From a virus, in IMG/VR virus record IMGVR_UViG_3300031997_002496: DNA of 15,828 nucleotides. One strand, given 5' to 3'. The notes beneath the pieces are model-generated. The model was not told the DNA's origin, made no database searches, and saw nothing but the letters and a program-made list of their open reading frames with translations. The translations under genes were made by a program, and so were the position numbers. Positions 735-15,828 of this stretch are shown piece after piece. The first letter of the stretch is position 1, and every line of letters starts with the position of its first letter.

Positions 735-1010
735 ATGCGTCGAACAAAGCGAGCAGGAATCGGGGAAGAGAAAGTGAAGAAGATTTCCGTCAAGCGACTC
801 CCCCGCAAGACCTCCTTCATTGTGCAGTACTCTGACGGACGTCGAGTAGAAACGTCGTACGTAGAGATCCAAGGAAATGCTACGCTCTACCTGGACCCTG
901 GAACGAAAGAGCCCGTCCTCCGGACAGAAGCAAACGTAAATCTCGGACACGCCACAGGAACCTGCGCGGTATGCGGGGGAGATACAGATGACCAACACGC
1001 CCATGCTTGA
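735..1010 (+). CDS. hypothetical protein (91 aa), translationally coupled to the response regulator
   Basis: ATG at 735 lies 4 nt after the TGA of the receiver gene, and the sequence GGGGGATGAGG sits upstream. The 3' end overlaps the SNF2 gene start by 23 nt. Basic N-terminus, C-terminal CAVCGG. No recognisable domain. Confidence 0.45.
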   Translation: MRRTKRAGIGEEKVKKISVKRLPRKTSFIVQYSDGRRVETSYVEIQGNATLYLDPGTKEPVLRTEANVNLGHATGTCAVCGGDTDDQHAHA

Positions 1011-3207
1011 CCGCTTCAAGATCGCCGCCAAGCAAAAGAAAGAAAAGAAGAAACCGGCGGAGCCGGAGTCCTTCAAATGGACAAGCGGCCCTGAGGAAAA
1101 AGAAGAGCCGGATGGTGCGGTCATGCGCGCCGCAAAGATGTTCGGTAAGGGTATGGGCGGGCTCGCCGCGGGAAATCTGGCAGCGACGCCTCTGGCCATA
1201 GGTACTTTCGCGCTGGACGACCGCCTCAAAGAGCAGAGGCCTGTAGGTACTCGGCAGATTGCCTCAGAGATGGGGCAGAAGATCGACAAGTATACGCACG
1301 GGGATCCTGGGGGCGGAGTCGGAGCGACCAGGGATGGGAAACTGGTTACGCTCATTCGTACGCGGCCAAAGGACTCAGAAGCCATCAAGGCGCACGAAGT
1401 GGGCCACGTCAAAAACGTTGAGATGGTTGGGAAGATGCCGTGGGGCCTCGCGCGAAGCGGCTCCGGAATGTTGACCAGTCTGAGTGGCCCCGCGGCGGGA
1501 GTCTATTCCGCCGTCGCCGACGACCCGTCGTACACCCCCTCGATGGTGCACCTCGGACTGAGCGCGCCGATCCTGTTGGACGAAGCTCTCGCATCTCTCC
1601 GAGCCCTGCATCACATGACTGGAAAGCATGGCCTCGGTACAGGGATGAAGCGGTCCCTCCCTCTGCTGCCAGCCTTTGGGTCGTATGCGGCGCAAGCCCT
1701 CGCACCGGCCGGAATCGTAGCGCTGCGCCGCTTCCTCAAAAAGAGGGAGGATGAAAAAAAAAAGACCAGCGGGGGAGTAGCCGAGAAAACGGCTAAGATC
1801 ACAACCAAGCTCAAGCCGCACCAACAGCGGGTCGTTGACCGCATGGAAGACGAAGACCAGCCGGGCATTGTGGCGGCCCATGGGTTGGGTTCCGGCAAAA
1901 CGCTGACAAGCCTGGCGGTGCAAGAGGCGCTCGGACTTCCTGCCGACATCGTAACACCTGCGGCCCTCCAGTCGAACTACCAAAAAGAGATCAAAGCTCA
2001 CACCACCAAGCATCCCGAAACACACATTCAAAGCTTGGAGGGCGTCGCTCGTACGGGCGGCTCGGGTCTCAAGAGCCCCTTCCTGGTGGTGGATGAAGCC
2101 CACCGTCTGCGAAATGCGGGCAAGGCTCGCACGGGGATCAAAGCTTCTCCAGCCAAGAAACGCCTCGCCCTCACCGGGTCCCTTCTCTACAACCACCCCT
2201 CCGACGTATCAGGCCCCATCAACATGGTAGCGGGGCGCTCCGTGCTTCCGGAGAACCCCGACGAATTCACTCAACGTTTCCTGCAAGACGTCCCCATGAG
2301 TCGCAGTCTCTGGGAACGTCTCCGGGGTACGCCCGCGTTCTATCAGACCCGTCTCAATCCAAAGTCGGTGGGGTCGCTCCAGGCAGCTCTCGACAAGTAC
2401 GTTGATTTTCACCCCGGTAGCACTGAGGACTTCCCGACGCGAGAAGACGCGACTGTCCGCGTACCGATGACCCGCGACCAGATGAAGCTGTACGAAAACG
2501 TTGGTAAGGATCAACCTGGCTGGCTGCGTCGGAAGGTTCTGATGAACCTCCCACCGACCAAAGCCGAAGCGAAACAGCTCAACGCTTTCCTCACCGGTGT
2601 CCGGCAGGTAGCCAACACAACGCAGGGATTTGACACCAGCGCCCACCCGGCGCACCAGCCGAAGATCGACCGAGCTGTGACAGAGCTGCAGAGCATGCTG
2701 GCGAAGAATCCTCGTGCGAAAGCAATCGTCTACTCGCACTACCTCGAATCAGGGATCGACCCGTACAAGAAGAAGCTTGAGGAACTCCACATCCCGCATG
2801 GTTCTTTCACCGGCGAGATGCCGCGCGCTGAACGGGACCGCATGGTGAAAGACTACAACTCCGGGAAGCTGAAAGCCCTGCTGCTCTCCAGCGCCGGCGG
2901 CGAAGGCTTGGACCTCAAGGGAACTCGCCTCATCCAACTCCTCGAGCCCCACTGGAATCAGGAGAAGCTGAAGCAGGTCATCGGTCGCGGCATCCGCTAC
3001 AAGAGCCACTCCGGCCTCCCCGAGAATGAGCGAAACGTCCTGGTGCAGCGGTACCTCGCAACGCGAGCTCCCTACGGAGCCATGGAGCGCCTGGGCCTAC
3101 GCAAGCCCGGCTACGGCGTAGATGAGTACCTCGATGAGATGGGCGCCCGTAAGGAGCAGCTGAACGAGCAGGTCCGGCGCATGCTGCGAGAGCCACAAAG
3201 TACTTGA
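988..3207 (+). CDS. SNF2-family helicase/ATPase with an N-terminal HExxH (zincin-like) domain; polyvalent-protein-like
   Basis: 739-aa ORF. GGGGAG sits 6 nt upstream of the ATG. The N-terminal ~260 aa contain AHEVGH (nt 1393-1407). A Lys-rich linker (KKREDEKKKTSGG) follows. The SNF2 N-domain motifs are present: GLGSGKT (Walker A), VVDEAHRLRN (DEAH box) and LALTGSLLYNHP. The helicase C-domain carries AIVYSHY...LLLSSAGGEGLDL...QVIGRGIRYKSH (motif VI). Confidence 0.85.
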   Translation: MTNTPMLDRFKIAAKQKKEKKKPAEPESFKWTSGPEEKEEPDGAVMRAAKMFGKGMGGLAAGNLAATPLAIGTFALDDRLKEQRPVGTRQIASEMGQKIDKYTHGDPGGGVGATRDGKLVTLIRTRPKDSEAIKAHEVGHVKNVEMVGKMPWGLARSGSGMLTSLSGPAAGVYSAVADDPSYTPSMVHLGLSAPILLDEALASLRALHHMTGKHGLGTGMKRSLPLLPAFGSYAAQALAPAGIVALRRFLKKREDEKKKTSGGVAEKTAKITTKLKPHQQRVVDRMEDEDQPGIVAAHGLGSGKTLTSLAVQEALGLPADIVTPAALQSNYQKEIKAHTTKHPETHIQSLEGVARTGGSGLKSPFLVVDEAHRLRNAGKARTGIKASPAKKRLALTGSLLYNHPSDVSGPINMVAGRSVLPENPDEFTQRFLQDVPMSRSLWERLRGTPAFYQTRLNPKSVGSLQAALDKYVDFHPGSTEDFPTREDATVRVPMTRDQMKLYENVGKDQPGWLRRKVLMNLPPTKAEAKQLNAFLTGVRQVANTTQGFDTSAHPAHQPKIDRAVTELQSMLAKNPRAKAIVYSHYLESGIDPYKKKLEELHIPHGSFTGEMPRAERDRMVKDYNSGKLKALLLSSAGGEGLDLKGTRLIQLLEPHWNQEKLKQVIGRGIRYKSHSGLPENERNVLVQRYLATRAPYGAMERLGLRKPGYGVDEYLDEMGARKEQLNEQVRRMLREPQST
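1754..1763 (+). repeat. A10 homopolymer containing an in-frame A_AAA_AAG slippery heptamer inside the SNF2 gene
   Basis: Ten consecutive A residues in a ~60% GC sequence. The main frame reads gaA AAA AAA AAG (E-K-K-K). This places the dnaX-type X_XXY_YYZ heptamer A_AAA_AAG (1758-1764) in the zero frame, exactly in the linker between the HExxH domain and the SNF2 domain. Confidence 0.6.
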
Positions 3208-4379: not shown

Positions 4380-4392
4380 CCTATACTGGCGC
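4380..4392 (+). promoter_or_regulatory. CTATACTGG motif copy 5 nt upstream of ATG 4393 (possible -10 of a leaderless transcript)
   Basis: cccCTATACTGGcgcATG. No convincing -35. Confidence 0.2.
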
Positions 4393-5028
4393 ATGCCGCT
4401 CAACGGGGCATACTCCTGGAAAGAGGACAATCTCTCCCCCGACGAGCGGGTTGACCATTTTTTCAATTTGATTGATCACGCCGTCGAGAACGGAATTCCG
4501 CTAGCTGAGCTGTTCCACCGGAAGCACGTCAAAAGCTTCCTCCTCTATCTCTTGCAACGGTACGACGAGCCCTGTAAAACCTGCAACCTTCGCCCAACTA
4601 AAGGATCAACCACAATGCCCAAGCTGACTCTGACCAGTACGTTTGCCTCGTCCATCGTCATCGGTGATCCGGCCAACATCACCTTCACCTTGCTCCCCAA
4701 AGAGACGAAGTCCGTAGAAGTGACGGATGTCCAACTCCGCCAGCTCACCCCAGGCCTGGAGAAGCTCAAAGGAGCTGGCTGGCTGAACTACGTGGCAGGC
4801 GTCGCGGCTCCCGTCGCTGTCCCAGAGCCCGTCAAGGTGGTCGAAGACGTGAAGGTCGTCGCAGTGCCGGTGGCCCCGCCGCCCGCTCCTGAGCCCGTTG
4901 CCGCCCCTGAACCCGTAGCGGCCCCTGAGCCTGCCGCTGAGGAAGCCGCCGCCCCTGAGGCTCCCGTGGCGAAGGTGGAAGAGGCTCCGAAGCAGAACCT
5001 CTTCGACCGGAAGAATCGCAACCGCTAA
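4393..5028 (+). CDS. hypothetical protein with a C-terminal Pro/Ala-rich repeat region (possible virion/structural protein); an internal alternative start at 4615 is plausible
   Basis: Continuous frame. ATG 4393 has no SD but follows a CTATACTGG motif. In-frame ATG 4615 has AAAGGA 9 nt upstream and would yield a 137-aa protein (MPKLTLTSTF...). The C-terminus carries VAVPEPVKV...APEPVAAPEPVAAPEPAAEEAAAPEAP. Confidence 0.5.
   Translation: MPLNGAYSWKEDNLSPDERVDHFFNLIDHAVENGIPLAELFHRKHVKSFLLYLLQRYDEPCKTCNLRPTKGSTTMPKLTLTSTFASSIVIGDPANITFTLLPKETKSVEVTDVQLRQLTPGLEKLKGAGWLNYVAGVAAPVAVPEPVKVVEDVKVVAVPVAPPPAPEPVAAPEPVAAPEPAAEEAAAPEAPVAKVEEAPKQNLFDRKNRNR
4886..4960 (+). repeat. imperfect 18-bp tandem repeats (gcccctgaRcccgtWgcS, about 3.5 copies) encoding an (A/P)PEPVA linker
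   Basis: Direct reading: the copies are gctcctgagcccgttgcc, gcccctgaacccgtagcg and gcccctgagcctgccgct, plus a partial fourth. Confidence 0.6.
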
Positions 5029-5038
5029 GCCGTTTTTC

Positions 5039-5053
5039 ACTATACTCGGAGGC
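5039..5053 (+). promoter_or_regulatory. CACTATACTCGG motif copy 7 nt upstream of ATG 5054 (possible -10 of a leaderless transcript)
   Basis: tcaCTATACTcggaggcATG. The 7-nt -10-to-ATG spacing fits a leaderless start. Alternatively GGAGG is an SD, but only 1 nt from the ATG. Confidence 0.2.
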
Positions 5054-5470
5054 ATGAGCCACCCTCTCGAGAATGCCTACTGGACCGGCCAGGTCGCGGC
5101 CTGTGAATCGTTTGGCGTCAAAGAAGCTGGAGTCCTCGGACAGATCGGCAAGTGGGGCGGCAAAGCCCTGCAATGGGGTGGGCGTGCCGCCGGAGTTGTA
5201 CCGGTCGCCGGTGAGGCCGTCGGCGCTATCGCTGGTGGCCTCGGCGGCGTGATGCAGGGCGCTGCCCAAGGTGAAGGCTGGAAGGGCATGGCCGCTCGCG
5301 GAGCGGCCGGTGCTGCCACTGGCGCGATGCCTCTCGGAGCTGGTCTGGTCGCTGGCGCTGCGAGTGATCTCGCGCTCGACAAGATGCTGGCGAAGAAACC
5401 CCCGGGGCCTCAGAACGCCCCAATGCCGGGGATGATGGGGCAGGGGCACCTTCCGGGGCATGCTGCGTGA
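5054..5470 (+). CDS. Gly/Ala-rich protein with glycine-zipper-like segments (138 aa)
   Basis: ATG 5054 is preceded by CTATACTcGGAGGc. The protein has GxxxG/AxxxA runs (AGEAVGAIAGGLGGVMQGAAQG, AAGAATGAMPLGAGLVAGAAS). Its stop overlaps the next start. Caveat: high GC alone can inflate Gly/Ala content. Confidence 0.5.
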   Translation: MSHPLENAYWTGQVAACESFGVKEAGVLGQIGKWGGKALQWGGRAAGVVPVAGEAVGAIAGGLGGVMQGAAQGEGWKGMAARGAAGAATGAMPLGAGLVAGAASDLALDKMLAKKPPGPQNAPMPGMMGQGHLPGHAA

Positions 5471-5952
5471 TGTCCCTCTCTCACCACGCATACAGCCTCG
5501 GAGCCTCGGACGCCAAAGTGGCGTTCTTTGGAGAGCTCTACGAGAAGCACATCAAAGGGGATCTTGGCCCCTTCGCGAGCGGTCTCTTCGTAGGGAGCCC
5601 TCTTAGTGCCGCGGCGGCAGGAGCCGCGGGACAAGCTCTCGACACGCCGGCTGGAGGATCAAAGATTCTCCGAAGTATCGGTGTCGGAGCCGGTGCAGCG
5701 GCGGCGAATAAGGTAGTTTCCCCTATCGCTAATTTCGTAGCCCATGCGGTAATGATGGGGCTCAACCCCATTCTGTATTCTTTGCCGGTGTTGGGATACC
5801 CGCCAGTCGCCGCGGCTATTTCGCAGCTGCTCGGAACCGCGATCCACGAGATTCCGACAGGTATCGCCCAGTCGTATGCTGCAACAAAGGGCCGAGCAGC
5901 GGCGCAACATCTTGAGAAGTTCCTACAGAAAAAGGACGTGAGGGTACCATGA
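5467..5952 (+). CDS. Gly/Ala-rich protein (161 aa)
   Basis: Its start overlaps the stop of the previous ORF, and its stop overlaps the next start in an ATGATG arrangement (translational coupling). Ala/Gly zipper segments. C-terminus is SYAATKGRAAAQHLEKFL. Confidence 0.5.
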   Translation: MMSLSHHAYSLGASDAKVAFFGELYEKHIKGDLGPFASGLFVGSPLSAAAAGAAGQALDTPAGGSKILRSIGVGAGAAAANKVVSPIANFVAHAVMMGLNPILYSLPVLGYPPVAAAISQLLGTAIHEIPTGIAQSYAATKGRAAAQHLEKFLQKKDVRVP

Positions 5953-6563
5953 TGACCAAAGAATGCACCTGCAAGGACGGCAAGAAAGATCCGAAGTGCA
6001 AGGCTTGCTCGAAGGGTGACGTCAACCTGGACAGCTTTCACCGCCTGAATCCTGAGGCCAAGCCCAAGACGGCTGGGCAGTTCAAGCTCGCCGGAGGGAA
6101 CCCCGGACTGTGGGGTGGGCTGAGTCAGGCCACCAAAGACCGCATCCTCAGCGCGGGCAAGGCGGGGCTCACCAGCGCCGTGCTGCCTGCGGCGGGCTCT
6201 GCGCTCGCAGCGGGTCTGGCGGCTGAACCGGGGCAGGGCTGGTCCGACGCGGCGAAGGCAGGGCTCGTGGGCGCAACGGCTGGCGGGCTTGCTGGCGCAG
6301 GACACCACCTCGGCATGACGGGGTCCAGCGACCTGGCGCACAGCTACCAGCGCGGCATCGGCGGCGACGTTCGAAACATGGGCAACTGGGGACGAGAGCA
6401 GATGGGACGCCCACTTCTGGCGCACCCCAACACCCCGCCACCGCCGAAAGTTGTTCCTGCTCCCGATGTGACGCCGACTCCCTCTGTCACCCCTGAAATT
6501 CCGAAGACGGGGATGTTCTACGAGTTCGGGAAGACCGCGGCGCTCTCTGCCTTCGCAATCTGA
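5949..6563 (+). CDS. Gly/Ala-rich protein (204 aa) with an N-terminal Cys cluster and a conserved C-terminal peptide
   Basis: ATGA overlap with the upstream gene. N-terminal CTCKDGKKDPKCKAC looks like a zinc knuckle. The middle is a Gly/Ala zipper, followed by a Pro-rich segment (PPPPKVVPAPDVTPTPSVTPEIP). The C-terminal peptide is FYEFGKTAALSAFAI. Confidence 0.55.
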   Translation: MMTKECTCKDGKKDPKCKACSKGDVNLDSFHRLNPEAKPKTAGQFKLAGGNPGLWGGLSQATKDRILSAGKAGLTSAVLPAAGSALAAGLAAEPGQGWSDAAKAGLVGATAGGLAGAGHHLGMTGSSDLAHSYQRGIGGDVRNMGNWGREQMGRPLLAHPNTPPPPKVVPAPDVTPTPSVTPEIPKTGMFYEFGKTAALSAFAI

Positions 6564-6570
6564 GACTCCC

Positions 6571-6756
6571 ATGCCTTTCAAAAGCGAAGCACAGCGCCGG
6601 CTGTTCCACGTGAAGGCTGACAAGGGAGAGATCTCCAAGGACACCGTGAGCGAGTGGGAGCACGCCACCAAGAACAAGAAGAAACTCCCAATGCACGTAA
6701 AGAAGTCCTACGAGCTTGGAAAACAGGCGGCGCTGAAAAGCTTTGCACTGAGGTGA
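6571..6756 (+). CDS. small Lys-rich protein (61 aa) ending in the same C-terminal peptide; in frame with, and one TGA away from, the next large ORF
   Basis: ATG at 6571, 8 nt after the upstream stop. C-terminus SYELGKQAALKSFALR. TGA at 6754-6756 is in the same frame as GTG 6760. Confidence 0.45.
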   Translation: MPFKSEAQRRLFHVKADKGEISKDTVSEWEHATKNKKKLPMHVKKSYELGKQAALKSFALR

Positions 6757-6759
6757 GCG

Positions 6760-9700
6760 GTGGGTGAGTACGACCGGGGAGCTCGAGCAGCGCTAGCCCT
6801 CTTCAGCAAGGAGGCCAATACCGGTGTGACCGCGGGCCACGTCAATCCTCTTCCGGTCGCAGGCAGCGGGTTCAATCAAGTAGCACAACAGGGAAATCCG
6901 ATGGCAGGACGGGTCGCCCACTCCCTCGTCGGTGGCGCCACTGGCGGAATTCTCAACGCGATGATGGCCCCCTCAGGGGACCGCATGCGGCAGGGGGCCA
7001 TTGGCTTTGCGTCAGACGCCATCGGAAGCGCCCTGGGCCCTTGGGGGATGATTGCCAGCCCCCTTCTGAACATGGGGCTCCAACAGCTGACATCCTCAAG
7101 TGGGGAAGAGAAGCGCGCTGACCACGCGGATGATCGGCTGAAAGAGCGAATCAAAACGGAGTTCCCGCCGGACACGCTGGCAAAACTCAGAGCACAAGCA
7201 AAAGAACTCGAGCTCGCTCCGGGACGGTACTACCTCCCGATGAAAGACAAGGCCGGGAACACAGCGGCAATTGCAGCGTTCAAGACCGTTGGCCCGAAGG
7301 ATCAGCTGGTACTGGCGACAGTTCTGAAACCCAAGAACAACCCTCCGTCAGGCACATCACTTTCGCACCTGATGAAGCAACCTCTCGGGTCCCAGATTGC
7401 CAAGGTGGATGCGTCCCCCAAGACATACACGATCCGCAAGAACGACGCAGGGCGCCTGACGTGCACCTGCAAGAGCTTCAAGTTCAACCACCGAGCGGCG
7501 GGCACGAACTGTAAGCACATCGACGAGCACCTTGGAAACACGAAGGAGTCTGCGAACCGGTTTGAGCAGTTCCTCCTCAACCAGGGTAACGTCAGCGATC
7601 CTCAGAAGACGCAACTCCGTGGACAGTTCGGACGGCTGACCCCTCGCCCGACGGCGAAGTCGAAGGCCCTCACCAGCCAAGCTTTGGCGCTGGAGCCTGG
7701 TCCGCAGCAAGCAGCGTCTCTGCGGTCCATGCGGACGTTGATGCAGACGCCGCACTACCCGGACAAAGACAGCCTCGAACGAACGCGCCGAATTCACGAG
7801 CTCTCCCTCACACCAAAGCTTCGAGCAATGGGCGGCAAGAGTCTTGACGCTCGGCGTGCTGCGGCGACCGACCCCACGTTCTTCTACGACGAGAAGAAAC
7901 GGTTCGCGACGCCAGGAGAGTACCAGGCCAAGTCGTTACGTCTCGGCGAAGAAACAGCTCCCACAGGGCTCCGGGCCGAACACGTTCTTCGCTCTGCGGC
8001 GGCAGGGAAACCCATCGAAACCAAGCTCTCCCCTGAAGCAGGGCGGCTGGTGATGTACCCAGACGCCTTGAAGGTGCAGCGTGAGCGCCTGAACAAGCAA
8101 CGCACCACCCCCGGCCAAACCAAACCCTGGGACCCCACCGACATGCGCCAGACCCTTGAGCACGAGGGGGCGGAGCGCAAGATGGTTCTCGAAGGCGTGC
8201 GCAGAGGCAAGCCGTCCACAGCGTACTCTTCGCACTGGGGCAGTGAGGCTGACGTCGCGGCGAACCAGGTCGCAGCCAAGGATCCCAAGAGTCAGTGGGT
8301 TCCAAACAACCCCGACTCCTTCATCGAGAAGGAACACTGGGACCGCCTCTACAAGCAGCACGGCGGGACTCGGGGACGCCCCATCCCGTCAGACAGTCGA
8401 GCTTCACGCAGCTTGGATAGATCAATCGCAGGCGTCATGGCGAAGACCCCCTTGACCGAGAAAACGCGGCCAGATCTCACAGCCGCCTTGGACGCAGGAG
8501 TCATGGGAATGCCTCTCCATCCGGAACTCGAAGCGCGTCTGAAGCGTGACTTCACCAAACTGAAGCCGGAGCTCGGTGAAACCTCCGCGCCCTGGGACGA
8601 CGCATCCCGGAGCCAAAAGGCTCTCGAAGTCCTGAAGAGTCGAACCCGGATGAAGACGTCCGCGGAAGGCGTGCGTCACTCTGGTGAACCCATCGACAAC
8701 CAGGAGGAGCCTCAGACCACGGAGGCTCCGATGCCTCCGCCTGAGAAGAAGAAGTCCTGGCTCCCTGCCTTGGGTACCGCGGCGGCGCTGGGACTTGGGA
8801 CGTACGGCCTCCTTCGCCGACCCTCGTTCTCTGCGAACCCCGCCCTGCGGAAAACACAGCAGTTGGCGGCGGAGAAAGGGTTCCACCGCATCGTTCCGGT
8901 GATGAAGTCCACAGATCTCCCAGACCCTGAGGCGGGGTTCCTGGGGCGGCTGCACCACAAGATTCAACCCAAAGTCGATGAGCAGGGCCGCATGAACTTG
9001 CTCAACCGCTTCAAGTTCTGGGCGCAGGAAGGCGGAGAAGCCGTCCCTATCGGGTACACGGACAAAGGGAAGGCGTTCATCCCCAACGGAGGGAAGCCGG
9101 TCAAGACTGAAGGCGTTGTCTTCGGTCGCCCCATGCTCGAGCCGAAGGAACGCAAACTTGTACGGGGTGGGGTGGACATCGAGGGGTCGGCGAAGACCCA
9201 ACGAGCCCTTACCGACATGGGGTTGAAGGGCAAGGGCATGGAAGCAACCCTCCTTCAGCGCCATTCCCCAGGAGCGGCGCCAAAGACGGTCGTCGATCTC
9301 TCCAAGTTCATGGCGCCTCCAAAGGGGAGAGAAACTTCGAACCAGCGGGTTGCGCGGATTCGCGAAATTCAGAAAGCAATGCAGGCAAAATTCAAAGGTA
9401 CGGAGATGGAAGACCACCTCCTCAAACCGACCCTTGGATTCAACTCCGGCGGGAAGTTCCCCATGAGCGGGGACGATTGGGGCAAACACCTCGCCAGGTT
9501 CGACAAAGCCATGGCAGATCCGGCGTTCAAGGCGAAATTTCAGAAAGCCACCCCCGACGAATTCGCCAACATGGTGTGGGACAAGAAGATTCTCGAGGGA
9601 CACACGCTCCACGAGATGCTGAAGAACCCGCAGTCGGCGATTGCTCAGCAGCAGATCCCCAACCGGCTTGGGGAGTGGCGCGTCAACGTTACCAAGGGTG

Positions 9701-10158
9701 AAGCCCCGTTGAGCATGATGGCGCCGCGTGGGGCTACCGACAACCCGATGGAGTCTCTCAAAGAACTGGCAACTGAGGGAGTAAGCCCCTTCAAGATCAA
9801 ACAGTTCGTTGAAGGCCACGTCCGAAAGCTTCCGAAGCACTACCGCGAAGGAACGTACGGCGCTGACGTGATGCCGTACTACACGCCTGAAGGGAAGCTG
9901 GACTACAAATTCGTCGAGCTCAACCCATCAGAGCGGGCGGGGTACCACGGTAGCGCCGGTGGCGGCTCAGGCTTCCTCGACGCCAGCAACATCCCCTGGG
10001 CGGGGCACGCACACTACCGCACGGCGACGGGCCGCCACACGACGCCAGTGGCTATGGCCGGAGGCTTGGCAGCGGCTGGGCTGGGCGGTATGGCGGCTCG
10101 AGCGCTGACGCCTGAGCAGAAGGATGAGGAAGAAGACGCCCCACATCCTGTGGGCTAA
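6760..10158 (+). CDS. very large protein (1132 aa) with a Gly/Ala-rich N-terminus, a SWIM-type zinc finger and one predicted TM helix; candidate internal virion / ejection protein
   Basis: Uninterrupted 3.4-kb frame. GTG 6760 has GAGGTG 4 nt upstream. ATG at 6901 (MAGRVAHS...) is an alternative start. A SWIM-like CxCx(n)CxH is present (LTCTCKSFKFNHRAAGTNCKH, nt ~7454-7520). A hydrophobic helix (SWLPALGTAAALGLGTYGLL, ~8754-8815) is also present. The N-terminal 16 aa repeat the peptide motif seen at the ends of the two preceding ORFs. Confidence 0.8.
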   Translation: MGEYDRGARAALALFSKEANTGVTAGHVNPLPVAGSGFNQVAQQGNPMAGRVAHSLVGGATGGILNAMMAPSGDRMRQGAIGFASDAIGSALGPWGMIASPLLNMGLQQLTSSSGEEKRADHADDRLKERIKTEFPPDTLAKLRAQAKELELAPGRYYLPMKDKAGNTAAIAAFKTVGPKDQLVLATVLKPKNNPPSGTSLSHLMKQPLGSQIAKVDASPKTYTIRKNDAGRLTCTCKSFKFNHRAAGTNCKHIDEHLGNTKESANRFEQFLLNQGNVSDPQKTQLRGQFGRLTPRPTAKSKALTSQALALEPGPQQAASLRSMRTLMQTPHYPDKDSLERTRRIHELSLTPKLRAMGGKSLDARRAAATDPTFFYDEKKRFATPGEYQAKSLRLGEETAPTGLRAEHVLRSAAAGKPIETKLSPEAGRLVMYPDALKVQRERLNKQRTTPGQTKPWDPTDMRQTLEHEGAERKMVLEGVRRGKPSTAYSSHWGSEADVAANQVAAKDPKSQWVPNNPDSFIEKEHWDRLYKQHGGTRGRPIPSDSRASRSLDRSIAGVMAKTPLTEKTRPDLTAALDAGVMGMPLHPELEARLKRDFTKLKPELGETSAPWDDASRSQKALEVLKSRTRMKTSAEGVRHSGEPIDNQEEPQTTEAPMPPPEKKKSWLPALGTAAALGLGTYGLLRRPSFSANPALRKTQQLAAEKGFHRIVPVMKSTDLPDPEAGFLGRLHHKIQPKVDEQGRMNLLNRFKFWAQEGGEAVPIGYTDKGKAFIPNGGKPVKTEGVVFGRPMLEPKERKLVRGGVDIEGSAKTQRALTDMGLKGKGMEATLLQRHSPGAAPKTVVDLSKFMAPPKGRETSNQRVARIREIQKAMQAKFKGTEMEDHLLKPTLGFNSGGKFPMSGDDWGKHLARFDKAMADPAFKAKFQKATPDEFANMVWDKKILEGHTLHEMLKNPQSAIAQQQIPNRLGEWRVNVTKGEAPLSMMAPRGATDNPMESLKELATEGVSPFKIKQFVEGHVRKLPKHYREGTYGADVMPYYTPEGKLDYKFVELNPSERAGYHGSAGGGSGFLDASNIPWAGHAHYRTATGRHTTPVAMAGGLAAAGLGGMAARALTPEQKDEEEDAPHPVG

Positions 10159-10188
10159 AAAACGCCCCCAGCTACGGGGGCGGTACTT
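10157..10188 (-). terminator. intrinsic terminator (7-bp GC stem plus U6) oriented for the minus strand, lying between convergent genes
   Basis: Plus strand reads aaaaaaCGCCCCCagctacGGGGGCGgtacttc. On the minus strand the transcript is CGCCCCC-guagcu-GGGGGCG followed directly by UUUUUU. On the plus strand the A-run precedes the stem and no U-tract follows it. Confidence 0.7.
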
Positions 10189-10613
10189 CACTGAGTCCTG
10201 ACAACCAGGCACCAGTTGGTCCAACGCTTACGGAATGCGTTGTGCGTCATCTTCGTTCCCAAGAGCCGGAGCGGCGCCGGGTCCGCCAGGTAGACGTACT
10301 TCGCGTCACAGCCGTGCACGACGCCGAAGTGGTCGCCGTCGAGATGAACAAGCAGCAGCTTCTCCTTCTTCAGCGCGGCTTGCAGCTCTCGGAATCGCAT
10401 GCGGTAGTTGTGCTGCACGTGAAGCTTTCGCTTGCGAAACGCTTTGATCATCGCATGTACTCGCGTGCCCTTTTCAGGGGTGCACCCAAGCTCACGCTTC
10501 AAGCGGCGGTACGGTGACCGGTCGCCGAAGTGATGAAGGATCATCGCTACAGAGTGCACTCCGCACGAATAGCTGTCGAGCTGAATGGATCTACGGAAAA
10601 CGGATATCGTCAC
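10188..10613 (-). CDS. standalone C39-like papain-fold cysteine peptidase domain (141 aa)
   Basis: GTG start with AGGAGG 6 nt upstream on the minus strand. Catalytic Cys context YSCGVHSVAMILHHFG matches the bacteriocin-processing C39 signature ([DE]CGxAxLAM(I/V)LxxxG). The His block is DHFGVVHG, followed by VYLADPA (the conserved DPA/Asp region). No ABC-transporter domains are attached. Confidence 0.7.
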   Translation of the reverse strand: MTISVFRRSIQLDSYSCGVHSVAMILHHFGDRSPYRRLKRELGCTPEKGTRVHAMIKAFRKRKLHVQHNYRMRFRELQAALKKEKLLLVHLDGDHFGVVHGCDAKYVYLADPAPLRLLGTKMTHNAFRKRWTNWCLVVRTQ

Positions 10614-11300: not shown

Positions 11301-11327
11301 GCGACTTTACTGAGTAGACTGGTGAGG

Positions 11328-11636
11328 TCAAAAGCCTTTCGGCCAAACGCTGTGAACCGCGTGCTCTTTCAAGACAGCGCGGATCATGTTCTCCACCTGC
11401 TTCTTAGGGACCGTGAGATCAGAAGCGGCGGCGCTCATGGCAAGATACAAAGCGTCACCGCCTACGGTGTGTCGGACGAGGTACCGCGTGAACGCGGCAA
11501 GGAGTTCAAACGGGATATCATCTGGTCCCGGTCCGTGTTGAACAGGCTCGCGCTGCAGCCCTCTCCGATCCCCATCGCCTCCTCCATTTCCTTTTTCAAC
11601 TTCGGCTCCGCGTCGATATACATCCCGCAGCGCCAT
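11328..11636 (-). CDS. hypothetical protein, or the C-terminal part of a frameshifted gene (conflicts with 11462..11770)
   Basis: Only the last ~60 aa look like real protein (PFELLAAFTRYLVRHTVGGDALYLAMSAAASDLTVPKKQVENMIRAVLKEHAVHSVWPKGF). The N-terminal part is low-complexity. Confidence 0.25.
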   Translation of the reverse strand: MALRDVYRRGAEVEKGNGGGDGDRRGLQREPVQHGPGPDDIPFELLAAFTRYLVRHTVGGDALYLAMSAAASDLTVPKKQVENMIRAVLKEHAVHSVWPKGF

Positions 11637-11770
11637 TGAATCCCCACCTGTCGAAGGTACGGGCAACCCACTTTCTTGTCCCATGTCTTTCCCTCCTCGT
11701 TCATTCGGTAAGCGCTGAAGCCGCAGGGGCCTCGGCGGCATTCGAAACCACACCCTACGCAGTCAGCCAT
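11462..11770 (-). CDS. Cys-rich metal-binding small protein (N-terminal CxxCxxxCxxxxC cluster); the 3' boundary is uncertain because of a frame conflict
   Basis: ATG at 11770 overlaps the stop of the upstream gene (ATGGCTGA). MADCVGCGFECRRGPCGF...GCPYL...WRCGMY. The first ~70 aa look protein-like; the tail does not. An overlapping frame (11328..11636) has a convincing C-terminal 60 aa. Confidence 0.4.
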   Translation of the reverse strand: MADCVGCGFECRRGPCGFSAYRMNEEGKTWDKKVGCPYLRQVGIQWRCGMYIDAEPKLKKEMEEAMGIGEGCSASLFNTDRDQMISRLNSLPRSRGTSSDTP

Positions 11771-12074
11771 CTTTGAGCAACCATTCGGCGATCAAGTTAG
11801 CTACCTTGTTACTTAGCTCCTCGTCGCCGTCCTCCTCCAAGCCACAGATGTAGTGGCAAAAGTTGTGGACGACGTACCGCTCGAGCGACATATCGGGGCT
11901 ATTCCGCCGCCACGCCTCGATGTTCAACCGCACCTCCGGGGGCGACGTGAAGTCGCACCGGTCTGTCGCCGCCGCCGGTTTCACCGCCGGGAACGGCATG
12001 TTGTAGATCCTGCACAAGAGGTTGAACCGCGCCCGTGCCGTCTTGAACAACTTGCTACGCTTTGAAGCCGCCAT
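11763..12074 (-). CDS. hypothetical protein (103 aa) with an HxxCHxxC motif
   Basis: ATG at 12074 with GGAGGA 3-4 nt upstream. YVVHNFCHYICGLEEDGDEE may bind metal. Overlaps the next gene by 8 nt. Confidence 0.6.
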   Translation of the reverse strand: MAASKRSKLFKTARARFNLLCRIYNMPFPAVKPAAATDRCDFTSPPEVRLNIEAWRRNSPDMSLERYVVHNFCHYICGLEEDGDEELSNKVANLIAEWLLKDG

Positions 12075-12748: not shown

Positions 12749-13863
12749 ATGTTTTCCCTCATTCGAAGCGCCACCGGGAATCGGGGGACGCCGTTTTTGG
12801 TTGTGTAGCCCTGGAACTTCACCGTCAGCAACTTGCCGACGACCAGTCCAGGTCGCTCGTAGTACTGCTTCAGGCTTTCGAGCTCGCCTTTCATCTTGGC
12901 CCGGAACTCGACTCCAGCGTTCGTCTTGCAGACGAAGATGCCGTGGCCCGCCAACTTGCCACGACCCTCTTCGACTCCGATGACAACGAACTCCTCGTCG
13001 ATGAACTCCTTGACCTTCTGAAGATCGTACGAGCGCTTGTTGACGTACTCGCCCGCCATGTTCCTAACCATCAGACCTTCATATCCTTGTACCAAGAATC
13101 GGTCGAAGGTGAGCATCAACTCGTCCTCGTCGGCGATCTCAACGGTCTCCACCTGGCAGAGGCTTCCGACTAGCGTGAACGCCCCCAAGAGGGCGTGACG
13201 ATCCGCGAACGTCCCCGGGCCTGCGACGTCGTAGACGTGGTACTCAACGACCTCGTGCCCAGGCTTGGGATCCTCGTTCCGAATGAAGCTGGTAAGCTCT
13301 TCGAACTTCTCCCGGTACGCGTGGTTGTAGAGCTCGCCGTCCAGCACGACGCTCCGTTGCCCACGACTCTCCGCCCAGAACTCGACGTCCCGGATGATGT
13401 GGGGCAAACCGGTGATGGGCTTCCGGGTGCGAGACCAGAGCGTCGCTCTGCCCTCCGCGTCCACCATGGCGATGCAGCGATGCCCATCGAACTTGGGCTG
13501 AGCAAACGCCGGGTACGTGATTTTGTGCCCCTGCTCGTCGAAGCGGTGAGCCAACATCGGGTCCACCCCTCCCAGGACCAAGGCGTCCCGTTTGCCCTTC
13601 CTGGCGTCGCCAAGGCTCTCGACGTAGCCCTTGGCCGTCTTCTTCTTCTCCCACTGGGCCTTGGCCTCGAGCTCCGCCTGCTCTCGAGGAGTGGTCTCGT
13701 TGGCTCGACCACGGTTCTTGCCGACCTTGATGACGTCGGACGTTTCTTGAATCTTACCACCCACCTGCCCGAAGCGGGTGATGATGGTGTTCTCGGCGGT
13801 CTCGATTTGCCACATCTGGTCAGCGCCGGTGCTGGTCTTCTTGTACAGGGTTGGTAGCTTCAT
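12745..13863 (-). CDS. ATP-dependent DNA ligase (phage T7/Chlorella-virus-type minimal ligase, 372 aa)
   Basis: GGGAG lies 4 nt upstream of ATG 13863. Motif I is KFDGHR (adenylation lysine). Motif III is VLDGELY. Motif IV is EGLMVR. Motif V lysines are in DLQKVK. An OB-fold-like C-terminal region follows. Confidence 0.9.
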   Translation of the reverse strand: MKLPTLYKKTSTGADQMWQIETAENTIITRFGQVGGKIQETSDVIKVGKNRGRANETTPREQAELEAKAQWEKKKTAKGYVESLGDARKGKRDALVLGGVDPMLAHRFDEQGHKITYPAFAQPKFDGHRCIAMVDAEGRATLWSRTRKPITGLPHIIRDVEFWAESRGQRSVVLDGELYNHAYREKFEELTSFIRNEDPKPGHEVVEYHVYDVAGPGTFADRHALLGAFTLVGSLCQVETVEIADEDELMLTFDRFLVQGYEGLMVRNMAGEYVNKRSYDLQKVKEFIDEEFVVIGVEEGRGKLAGHGIFVCKTNAGVEFRAKMKGELESLKQYYERPGLVVGKLLTVKFQGYTTKNGVPRFPVALRMRENI

Positions 13864-13875
13864 GGGACTCCCGGT

Positions 13876-13910
13876 TTGAGGGTGGAAAAATACGAGCTAT
13901 ACTGGGGAAC
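13876..13910 (+). promoter_or_regulatory. candidate sigma70-like promoter TTGAGG-16 nt-TATACT (carrying the recurrent CTATACTGG motif), divergent from the ligase operon
   Basis: -35 TTGAGG at 13876-13881, a 16-nt spacer, then -10 TATACT at 13898-13903. The predicted TSS (~13911) falls just before GGAGG (13912-13916) and GTG 13921. The same 9-mer occurs at 4381-4389, and a near-copy at 5039-5048. Confidence 0.4.
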
Positions 13911-14887: not shown

Positions 14888-15820
14888 TTAGCCCTGAATG
14901 CTGACCGTGGGCTTCGCCGTGCCATTACCCGGCACGACCGTACCCTGCGTCAGCTTCTGCATCAGAGGAGCGAGCGGCGTGTTGGCGAACACCTTCGACA
15001 GGGCGTCGGAGACGGAGTCTCCGCCGATTGCCTGCTGAATGCTCCAGGCCTTGGCGACCTGAACCATGGTGTCGTTGTTGCTGAGCGCCAGCAGCGCCTC
15101 GGAGAACCCGGCCTGCGCTGCGCCGAACTTCGAGACGATTGCTTCTGCTTCCGCCTTCATGCCGATGATGGCTTGGTCCTGCGCCATCTTCTTGAGGCCG
15201 AGCACCTGGTCCTGTGCCCGCTTCTGGCGGGACAGTTCCTGGTCGAACTCGAAATTCTTGAGTTCCTCAGCCGATGCTTCGAGGTCCTTTTGAGTCCCGA
15301 TCCGCTTCAGCTCGTTCGCCAGCTTGGCCATGACGACGGTGAGCTCAGAAGCTGCGAGCTCGGTGCTGAGCTCGTTCTTCCGCATCAGGGTGGCGGCGCG
15401 CACTTCAGCCTCCTCCTTGACGACGCTCTCCTTCTCCTTGGTGACCTCGAGGCCCCGCTTCAGCTGGGACAGCTCGATGTTGGTCTTGACCACCGCGAGG
15501 GCGCTCTGCTTGAACGTCCCTTCGATGGCCTGGTCCAGGCAGTCCACCGCCAAGACTTCGACGTCGGTGACGCGCATCCCGTTCTCCGGGAAGCTGCGGC
15601 CCTTCGCCTTGCCCGTGCCTTCCGGAGCCCCGAGCACCAGGCCCTGAAGAATCTCAGTGGCGTTGGGACGGAAGTCCTCGAAGCGGAGCTTCTTGACGGC
15701 GCCCTTCAGATCCGAGCGCATGCGGTCACAGAGGAACTTGACGTAGTTCTCCACGTTCCACCACTTCGAGCTGTCACCCTCGAAGTTCACCCGGTAGCCC
15801 AGGCGCAGGTTGAACTGCAC
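14888..15820 (-). CDS. SPFH/band-7 (flotillin/YqiK-like) protein, 5'-truncated by the window edge
   Basis: The frame stays open to the window end (…DYVQFNL), so the true start lies beyond 15828. The SPFH-like core includes MRVTDVEVLAVD. A long Ala/Glu-rich coiled-coil follows, with the flotillin-type KAEAEAIVSKFGAAQAG repeat and a C-terminal tail. The stop at 14888 is followed by the strong terminator. Confidence 0.5.
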   Translation of the reverse strand: MQFNLRLGYRVNFEGDSSKWWNVENYVKFLCDRMRSDLKGAVKKLRFEDFRPNATEILQGLVLGAPEGTGKAKGRSFPENGMRVTDVEVLAVDCLDQAIEGTFKQSALAVVKTNIELSQLKRGLEVTKEKESVVKEEAEVRAATLMRKNELSTELAASELTVVMAKLANELKRIGTQKDLEASAEELKNFEFDQELSRQKRAQDQVLGLKKMAQDQAIIGMKAEAEAIVSKFGAAQAGFSEALLALSNNDTMVQVAKAWSIQQAIGGDSVSDALSKVFANTPLAPLMQKLTQGTVVPGNGTAKPTVSIQG

Positions 15821-15828
15821 GTAGTCCT

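Follow-up and report, generated by a model that had tools for sequence, protein, structure and literature searches.

The 15,828-nt IMG/VR record IMGVR_UViG_3300031997_002496 (hereafter the window, i.e. the whole stretch of DNA analysed), which lies on a 21,099-bp ENA contig, carries on its + strand three overlapping open reading frames (ORFs) for Gly/Ala-rich proteins, A (5054..5470), B (5470..5952) and C (5949..6563), followed by D, an ORF of 61 amino acids (aa), and the gene of a giant protein, G. We report that these five proteins have a 12-residue tag in common, Y-x-x-G-x-x-x-A-x-x-x-[FY], which is situated at one end of each of them and was overlooked in the initial annotation of this DNA.

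For comparison we used about 15 distinct related metagenomic loci, all from one narrow lineage of uncultivated phages of ~167-190 kb that derive mostly from JGI freshwater-type metagenomes, together with ENA/Logan assemblies. In L001, a ~190-kb IMG/VR contig, the five genes A-B-C-D-G are kept in the same order. The homologue searches for A, B and C covered 5.8 billion proteins and returned small unannotated metagenomic families only (7 relatives for A, 4 for B and 22 for C). The modularity of G was analysed by an exhaustive phmmer search of 1.84 billion representatives, and deposited phages were compared using tblastn against 50,697 phage records.

Gene organization and coding status

Gene A (138 aa) encodes the tag, a variable Gly/Ala-rich body and a C-terminal element, PMPGMMGxGxHLPG (5420..5467, +), that is conserved in the A family. 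Gene B (160 aa) combines an N-terminal tag with a moderately conserved body; an alternative GTG start at 5467 would give 161 aa, and a gene caller run independently on the ENA contig picked ATG 5470. In C (204 aa) a Cys-rich N-terminus is followed by the segment DVNLDSFHRLNPEAKPKTAGQFKLA (6018..6092, +), which is highly conserved in the C-family alignment, by a Gly/Ala-rich helical region, a variable Pro-rich linker and the C-terminal tag. Gene D (6571..6756, +) encodes a small basic domain (MPFKSEAQRRLFH...) and a C-terminal tag, and G (6760..10158, +) a multi-module protein of 1132 aa. The independent calls for A, B and C were identical to the annotated genes.

The initial annotation had three ORFs overlapping by ATGA-type junctions, and the overlaps are present: the A/B junction reads GTGATG, with the TGA stop of A overlapping GTG 5467 by 4 nt or ATG 5470 by 1 nt, and the B/C junction is ATGA. 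Both are kept in 10 loci (A/B -4 to 0; B/C -4 in all), and the gaps further downstream are 7 nt between C and D and 3 nt between D and G. Genes A, B and C are real and translationally coupled; they are probably also co-transcribed, with A-B-C-D-G forming one putative transcription unit.

Between the window and L001 the amino-acid identity is 51-58 %, the differences concentrate at the third codon position, and the ratio of nonsynonymous to synonymous substitution (dN/dS) is 0.30 for A, 0.15 for B, 0.31 for C and 0.04 for D. Reading frames, overlaps and motifs are conserved over the ~15 loci at 45-75 % protein identity. The GC content at the third codon position (GC3), which had been proposed as a check of the frame, did not discriminate between sense and antisense frames at ~60 % GC, and the coding status was therefore judged by dN/dS with the relatives instead. 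The antisense ORF 5538..6677 has the Arg/Pro/Ser-rich composition attributed to it (28 % R+P+S).

Three loci, L021, L023 and L024, are referred to as type II. They lack B and the Peptidase_C39 gene, their C is replaced by a version of 360-446 aa, and their fused D-G protein has only 246-301 aa, ending at or just before the SWIM finger of G. The absence of B and C39 and the short D-G suggest that the universal core consists of A, a C-type protein and the D-G core.

A tag shared by the protein termini

The tag is N-terminal in A (5078..5113, +; aa 9-20, YWTGQVAACESF), in B, which has a looser copy (5491..5526, +; aa 8-19, YSLGASDAKVAF), and in G (6769..6804, +; aa 4-15, YDRGARAALALF). It is C-terminal in C (6519..6554, +; aa 191-202, YEFGKTAALSAF), two residues from the C-terminus, and in D (6709..6744, +; aa 47-58, YELGKQAALKSF). 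With the strict pattern [YFW]xxGxx(x)[AS][AC]xx(x)[FLW] only four matches were obtained in the six-frame translation of the window (A, C, D and G), all of them at the very ends of proteins encoded one after another. By a hand estimate, five 12-residue motifs in proteins as long as these would all lie within ~9 residues of a terminus by chance with a probability on the order of 1e-6.

A profile of the tag was built from 45 seed copies and searched against the six-frame translation of 17 loci (443,260 residues). Matches above ~8 bits were confined to true coding frames of the lineage, non-seed proteins included; there were none in wrong frames and none in three distant phages. Among the seed copies the Tyr at position 0 and the Gly at position 3 are invariant (45/45 each), Ala at position 7 is present in 43/45 and Phe or Tyr at position 11 in 44/45. 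In the A family A8, Y9, G12, A16 and F20 do not vary, and neither do Y191, G194, A197 and A198 in the C family (19 sequences). Projected on a helix, the invariant residues form a single stripe, with a GxxxA close-packing motif between two aromatics, and in the (low-confidence) AlphaFold2 model of C the tag is part of a separate helix, residues 187-202, after a disordered linker. The hydrophobic moment is above the mean of shuffled sequences for the tags of C and G and below it for those of A, B and D, so that the tag is not clearly a classical amphipathic helix.

The non-seed matches include a protein of 383 aa, encoded directly downstream of G in L001, L002 and L015, with the tag at its N-terminus, and three or four clustered proteins of low complexity, encoded 5-8 kb upstream. 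On the contig of the window this upstream cluster lies just outside the window (proteins of 348, 113 and 94 aa), so that at least eight tagged proteins are encoded within ~11 kb. The helicase, the PNKP-type phosphatase and the ligase encoded nearby do not carry the tag according to the profile search.

Gene fusions and splits are informative about how the tag is used. Where D and G are separate (the window, L004, L015 and L007) each has one copy. The two are fused in frame in L001, L011, L014, L018, L021, L023 and L024, and a single copy is left in the fusions of L001, L014, L018, L021, L023 and L024; the junction in L018, ...LPMHVKKSYDQGVQAALALFSKSANV..., is an exact merger. Likewise, in the B-C fusions of L007 and L019 the N-terminal copy of B is lost and only the C-terminal copy of C is kept. 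There is one tag per polypeptide: since split genes each keep a copy and fusions drop one, the tag behaves as a one-per-chain element, and it is an autonomous, portable module. The domain of D also occurs free-standing, as a basic protein of ~51 aa without the tag, in bacterial genomes, from which we infer that the tag was added to an unrelated domain in this phage lineage. These bacterial relatives of the N-terminal ~45 aa of D (MPFKSEAQRR..EWE..KLPERV; L029-L052) are from Acidobacteriaceae, Bdellovibrionales, Verrucomicrobiae and one metagenome-assembled genome of Firmicutes, and the ~51-aa protein has no Pfam or NCBIfam family. In the literature that we searched no description of the tag was found, and A, B and C match no described family.

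The Gly/Ala-rich bodies

The initial annotation pointed to high Gly/Ala and few charged residues in A, B and C, and this was borne out. Gly+Ala amount to 43.5 % in A, 30.6 % in B and 28.9 % in C, compared to 17-20 % in the helicase, the ligase and G, and D+E+K+R to 6-12 % of the Gly/Ala segments compared to 26-28 % elsewhere. The N-terminus of the giant is, as had also been noted, of similar character (32 % G+A and 7 % charged residues in residues 16-115).

We also examined whether the residues are spaced as in glycine zippers by comparing GxxxG and [GA]xxx[GA] counts with those of composition-matched shuffles. The proposed spacing holds for C (z 2.9; z 3.8 for triple small-xxx-small) and fails for A (GxxxG p 0.08, [GA]xxx[GA] p 0.13) and B (p 0.60 and 0.22, respectively). 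Hydropathy was expressed as the maximum 19-residue Kyte-Doolittle value (KD19), with a transmembrane (TM) threshold of 1.6 as the sole measure of membrane insertion; the maxima are 1.53 for A, 1.44 for B and 1.53 for C, and the soluble ligase and helicase of the window reach 1.35. AlphaFold2 with the family alignments, a check suggested at the outset, returned helical propensity and no confident fold, with a mean predicted local distance difference test (pLDDT) score of 53 for C (19 sequences) and 47 for A (7 sequences). For A, B and C there is no Pfam family at E <= 0.1, the Gly-zipper families included, and none in NCBIfam; together with D, the Pro-rich ORF upstream of A, the 383-aa protein and the upstream tagged proteins they gave nothing significant in Pfam, PHROGs, NCBIfam or PADLOC.

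The bodies are also the parts that vary. In the divergent A homologues P0032 and P0033, 32 residues of the Gly/Ala core are absent and both termini are conserved, and the Pro-rich linker of C is constant neither in length nor in sequence; best conserved in C are its tag and its N-terminal segment. Given the lack of a spacing excess in A and B, the low hydropathy, the pLDDT values of 47-53 and the missing core in A homologues, the Gly/Ala bodies resemble flexible sequence of variable make-up rather than zippers with precise packing.

The giant protein

The phmmer search divides G into five separable modules with differing distributions. The tag and the Gly/Ala region (residues 1-115; Gly/Ala part 6805..7104, +) are confined to the lineage. 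Residues ~117-210 (7108..7389, +) form a widespread domain found in many proteins of 90-1250 aa, and residues 226-254 (7435..7521, +) a SWIM finger with weak Pfam and PHROG matches. A middle domain (residues ~451-606; 8110..8577, +) recurs in SNF2-containing proteins, and the C-terminal ~470 aa (residues ~650-1132; 8707..10155, +), an R2K-like ATP-grasp region, usually exist as a standalone protein of 450-510 aa. Relatives of this last domain, P0144 (E 3.7e-5) and P0056 (E 1.4e-4), fall just under the cut-off of the R2K-clade ATP-grasp family PF14243. For G itself Pfam gives the weak SWIM match only, the hallmark polyvalent domains (MuF, MPTase, DarB-type methylase, ART) were not detected, and a PDB sequence search gave only noise.

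Elsewhere, modules of G are fused to enzymes. In P0123 (1232 aa) the domain of residues 117-210 heads a LigD phosphoesterase (LigD_N), a DNA ligase and an SNF2 helicase; in P0076 and P0095 the middle domain is joined to SNF2 helicases; and in P0058 the ATP-grasp-like domain stands between KTSC/DUF5661 and an InPase pyrophosphatase. Helicase and ligase activities are also encoded beside the A-G set in the window. On the basis of its domain architecture G resembles a polyvalent-like multidomain protein, and its length among the relatives varies between 245 and 1482 aa. A mobile insert, HIHSHPE(x)WTMHED(x)HP, which is His-rich and possibly metal-binding, is present at ~aa 700-800 of the 1482-aa giant of L001 and at 7505..8596 of L011; its position in the D-G proteins differs by locus.

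Neighbouring genes and regulatory elements

The order of the genes on the + strand is fixed: response regulator, SNF2 helicase, PNKP-type phosphatase, Pro-rich ORF, A, B, C, (D) and G. On the opposite strand after G follow the C39 peptidase, an HTH gene, DUF7417, DNA ligase and a full-length major vault protein (MVP). The Pro-rich ORF (4393..5028, +; 211 aa counted from the conserved start) encodes an N-terminal domain of ~120 aa and, after it, Pro/Glu/Ala repeats of the PEPVAAPEP type; it is kept in all loci and has no tag and no family match.

A promoter-like element, CTATACT (5040..5046, +), lies 7 nt 5' of the ATG of A and is invariant in 10/10 loci. The window has three copies (4381..4387, 5040..5046 and 13897..13903, +) where 0.17 would be expected, and 0/200 shuffles reach three. 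Each is just 5' of the start of a + strand gene, the first of them belonging to the Pro-rich ORF. There is no -35 element and the first two copies are 5-8 nt from the ATG, which suggests that CTATACT is a lineage-specific promoter giving leaderless or very short-leader mRNAs. At the other end, a strong terminator-like hairpin (10163..10182, -; 8 pairs, 7 of them G-C, then T6) sits between the stop codon of G and the convergent gene of a stand-alone Peptidase_C39 (10188..10613, -; 141 aa; E 7.6e-19). C39 is found beside the module in type I loci only and is absent in L011, L021, L023 and L024.

The SNF2 helicase (988..3207, +; N-terminus MLDRFKIA) has, right after FKIA, an insertion of ~259 aa (~aa 15-273) that is absent from its relatives (480-498 aa). 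The insertion includes a Gly/Ala-rich stretch and a metalloprotease-like HEVGH (1393..1407), making the helicase a two-module polyvalent-like protein. A second motif, [DEQRL]-F-K-[IL]-A, is found in the true frames of two families only, at the N-terminus of the SNF2 helicase (1012..1026, aa 9-13, MLDRFKIA, in every locus) and in the C family (6078..6092, aa 44-48, TAEQFKLA), and the long C versions carry extra copies of FK[IL]A-type motifs. As judged from these sequences, it may be another shared binding peptide that links C to the helicase.

At the end of the window is the C-terminal third of an MVP homologue (14888..15828, -; MVP_shoulder E 6e-20), comprising the shoulder and the C-terminal helical region and running off the window. 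The relatives have full-length MVPs of 892-919 aa (L004 16818..19499; L001 18634..21393; L021 11894..14572) with Vault repeats, shoulder domain and C-terminal helical region, and the identity within the lineage is 71-76 %. A search of both flanks for virion hallmarks using PHROGs gave only helicase, HNH endonuclease and one protein of L007 that shares a domain with tail-fibre and decoration proteins.

Possible function of the tagged proteins

We propose that the bodies of A, B and C would be low-complexity, charge-poor, weakly helical and spacer-like, with function carried by the conserved termini. The Y-G-A-F tag would then be a docking peptide, of which each separately translated chain needs one copy in order to join a common assembly, presumably by binding to one shared receptor surface or by bundling with other tags. 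The Gly/Ala/Pro-rich bodies would serve as flexible spacers or filler, and the assembly may be organised around the polyvalent-type giant G. Its destination would most likely be the phage head, such that the set is packaged and delivered with the DNA in the same way as the capsid targeting sequence (CTS) of phage T4 acts on Alt and the internal proteins. We consider it rather probable that co-assembly is mediated by the tag; the head as the destination is a tentative assignment, which we think doubtful. The statement as a whole, a tagged set docking onto the giant as head-packaged cargo, is plausible, although we give it a little less than an even chance. It leads because of the shared terminal tag and the polyvalent-like build of G.

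A further link to packaging may come from a distant phage of 197 kb, L008, in which the conserved segment of C (DVNLDSFHKLNPEAKPK) is part of a 612-aa protein whose gene lies upstream, by three genes, of a portal-like gene that matches weakly (PHROG E 2e-6). Two proteins between the 612-aa protein and the portal (11315..11845 and 12762..13760) share another N-terminal motif, SFFDELEKIS / LLDELEKIA, and this DELEKI motif may represent an analogous tag system beside the portal gene.

Several observations weigh against a packaged set. No portal, capsid, terminase or protease gene lies within +-10 kb of the module in the lineage, and the module sits among DNA-metabolism genes; its neighbours are helicase, PNKP, ligase, C39, HTH, HNH and MVP. 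Beside the tags there is no conserved cleavage site of the T4 or phiKZ type: in the A, B and G families [LIV]xE is found in 4/12, 2/8 and 0/10, and [SAG]xE in 1/12, 0/8 and 2/10, respectively. The tag can be C-terminal, unlike the T4 CTS, and by hydrophobic moment it is not clearly amphipathic in A, B and D. The link to L008 rests on ~25 residues, the label of polyvalent for G on domain sharing and sub-threshold Pfam matches, and since the module loci are all from a single narrow lineage there are few fusions and splits, though these are informative.

Alternative explanations

The position among DNA-metabolism genes, of which the neighbours share CTATACT, would also fit an intracellular scaffold or condensate. 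The tagged proteins would in that case not be packaged but would act during infection, with sticky terminal helices on flexible Gly/Ala/Pro spacers concentrating the SNF2 helicase, the PNKP phosphatase, the ligase and the giant. Such a role agrees with the low-complexity bodies and their low-confidence structure, with the three pieces of G that are fused elsewhere to SNF2, ligase or phosphoesterase enzymes, and with the FK[IL]A motif common to C and the helicase N-terminus. However, the very enzymes to be concentrated (helicase, PNKP and ligase) have no Y-G-A-F tag, there is no experimental or comparative phage precedent for a tag system of this kind, and a packaged role fits the evidence equally well. 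We regard a scaffold as unlikely.

Wherever a locus extends far enough, the gene of a full-length MVP is situated ~5-6 kb away from the module, and a short terminal peptide joined by a flexible linker is the cargo layout of other cages, such as bacterial microcompartments (BMC; PMC4594438). The tag might accordingly be a cargo-loading peptide for a vault-like MVP cage, with A, B, C, D and G as contents or lining. The proximity of MVP carries little weight, however, because the loci, all from one lineage, are syntenic throughout; between MVP and the module lie DNA ligase and other genes, and MVP is on the opposite strand. The search of viral contigs for co-occurrence with MVP returned close relatives only. 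Other MVPs in deposited phages are from huge phages only (LR756500, LR756501 and LR756503; 462 and 735 kb), with ~40 % identity, and within +-20 kb of these genes there is neither a module homologue nor a tag; tblastn with G, C and the D-G core gave no match in deposited phages. Eukaryotic vault cargo uses an INT domain of ~160 aa and not a short helix, and no INT-like domain was detected in A-G with Pfam. The published studies of viral MVPs are confined to in silico work and do not deal with partner proteins. On this evidence a vault cage is quite unlikely as the receptor, and its more specific form, in which the tag loads a phage-encoded vault shell in the infected bacterium with the tagged proteins and the polyvalent giant as contents, has only a slim chance. 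If true, it would be the first vault outside eukaryotes with a defined cargo and a short, transplantable targeting peptide.

Membrane insertion or pore formation by glycine zippers, as put forward in the initial annotation, would make A, B and C resemble holins, spanins or channels and serve in DNA passage or lysis. The high Gly/Ala, the few charges and the predicted helices are in keeping with such a role, as is the small-xxx-small excess of C (z 2.9-3.8). The claim was not borne out: no 19-residue window comes to 1.6 (best 1.53, with soluble controls at 1.35), the spacing in A and B is no higher than composition gives, no Pfam Gly-zipper or holin family matches, and the AlphaFold models are of low confidence. 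In addition, part of the Gly/Ala core of A is dispensable, and the conserved positions are at the termini instead of in the putative helices. Pore-forming proteins are thus improbable.

The Peptidase_C39 gene just downstream of G raises the possibility that A, B and C are C39-processed, microcin- or bacteriocin-like precursors with the N-terminal motif as a double-glycine leader, and class II microcins such as colicin V have a comparable Gly/Ala-rich composition. We rejected this hypothesis as very unlikely, since no G[GAS] site has a hydrophobic -4/-7/-12/-15 leader pattern (best 2/4), a leader could not lie at the C-terminus, where C and D have the motif, four loci lack C39 beside the module and no ABC exporter is nearby.

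That the ORFs are chance Gly/Ala-rich open frames in GC-rich DNA, a view to which the indecisive GC3 and the long antisense ORF could lend support, has practically no chance of being correct, as it is refuted by dN/dS values of 0.15-0.31 with third-position bias, by the conservation of frames, overlaps and motifs over the loci and by tag profile matches in this frame only.

Implications

If the tag is a docking or packaging signal as proposed, it would constitute a new peptide of 12 residues that works independently of its position and brings a set of proteins into a phage assembly. It would then aid the annotation of dark-matter genes in large uncultivated phages and possibly provide an engineering handle, and it would be an entry point to the recruitment of polyvalent-type giants for delivery and to the role of a full-length MVP in a phage. 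Were the MVP cage to prove the receptor, one could test directly what prokaryotic and viral vaults do. A tag that serves only as an assembly motif of internal head proteins, specific to this lineage, would be a modest extension of the T4 CTS principle.

Comparison with known systems

The set was initially likened to the internal-core or ejection proteins of podovirus-like phages. It does share with the T7-like gp14, gp15 and gp16 a co-oriented run of genes that ends in a very large protein. It differs in that there is no homology, in that it lies outside the structural module and in the size of the genome (~170-190 kb), and the comparison is a doubtful one. The absence of a recognisable lysozyme or transglycosylase domain, on the other hand, had been stated correctly and was confirmed by the Pfam and PHROG searches. 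The one relation to an internal virion protein is a non-significant match of phrog_342 (E 0.042) over the low-complexity region of C; tblastn of C, G and the D-G core against the 50,697 phage records gave no match, and blastn of the region gave none either. With TM glycine zippers and the Pfam Gly-zipper families A, B and C have in common that they are Gly/Ala-rich, charge-poor and helix-prone, including the small-xxx-small excess of C; they differ in having hydrophobicity below the TM threshold, no excess of periodicity in A and B and no family match.

According to Iyer et al. (2017, PMC5512222), polyvalent phage proteins are predicted to be capsid-packaged and delivered along with the DNA. 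As in these, G joins unrelated modules that recur with SNF2 helicase, ligase, phosphoesterase, KTSC and InPase, and the helicase of the window carries an extra HExxH-containing insertion. However, G has no hallmark domain, and tagged small proteins are not part of the described theme.

BMC encapsulation peptides are terminal helices of 15-20 aa at either terminus with a poorly conserved linker (PMC4594438). These and the cargo-loading peptides of encapsulins resemble the layout of C, where the helix 187-202 of the low-confidence model follows a variable, disordered, Pro-rich linker; in contrast, our tag is not clearly amphipathic and its "cargo" is mostly low-complexity sequence and not enzymes. 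No gene in any of the locus gene tables has a Pfam match to BMC-H, BMC-T, BMC-P or an encapsulin shell; an MVP gene is there instead.

In phage T4 the CTS is N-terminal only and is cut off by the prohead protease at an LxE site. The tag described here, in contrast, can be at either terminus, has no conserved cleavage site and no sequence similarity to the CTS, and the packaging of its carriers is proposed by us. The likeness is in the arrangement: a short terminal peptide is the sole common part of several small proteins (IPI-III in T4) and one large enzyme (Alt in T4), the genes of the small proteins are clustered, and the T4 peptide directs its carriers into one assembly. The CTS is the only element conserved among the diverse T4 internal proteins (PMC3012670). 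The principle of a shared terminal targeting peptide is already known; these proteins and this tag appear to be new.

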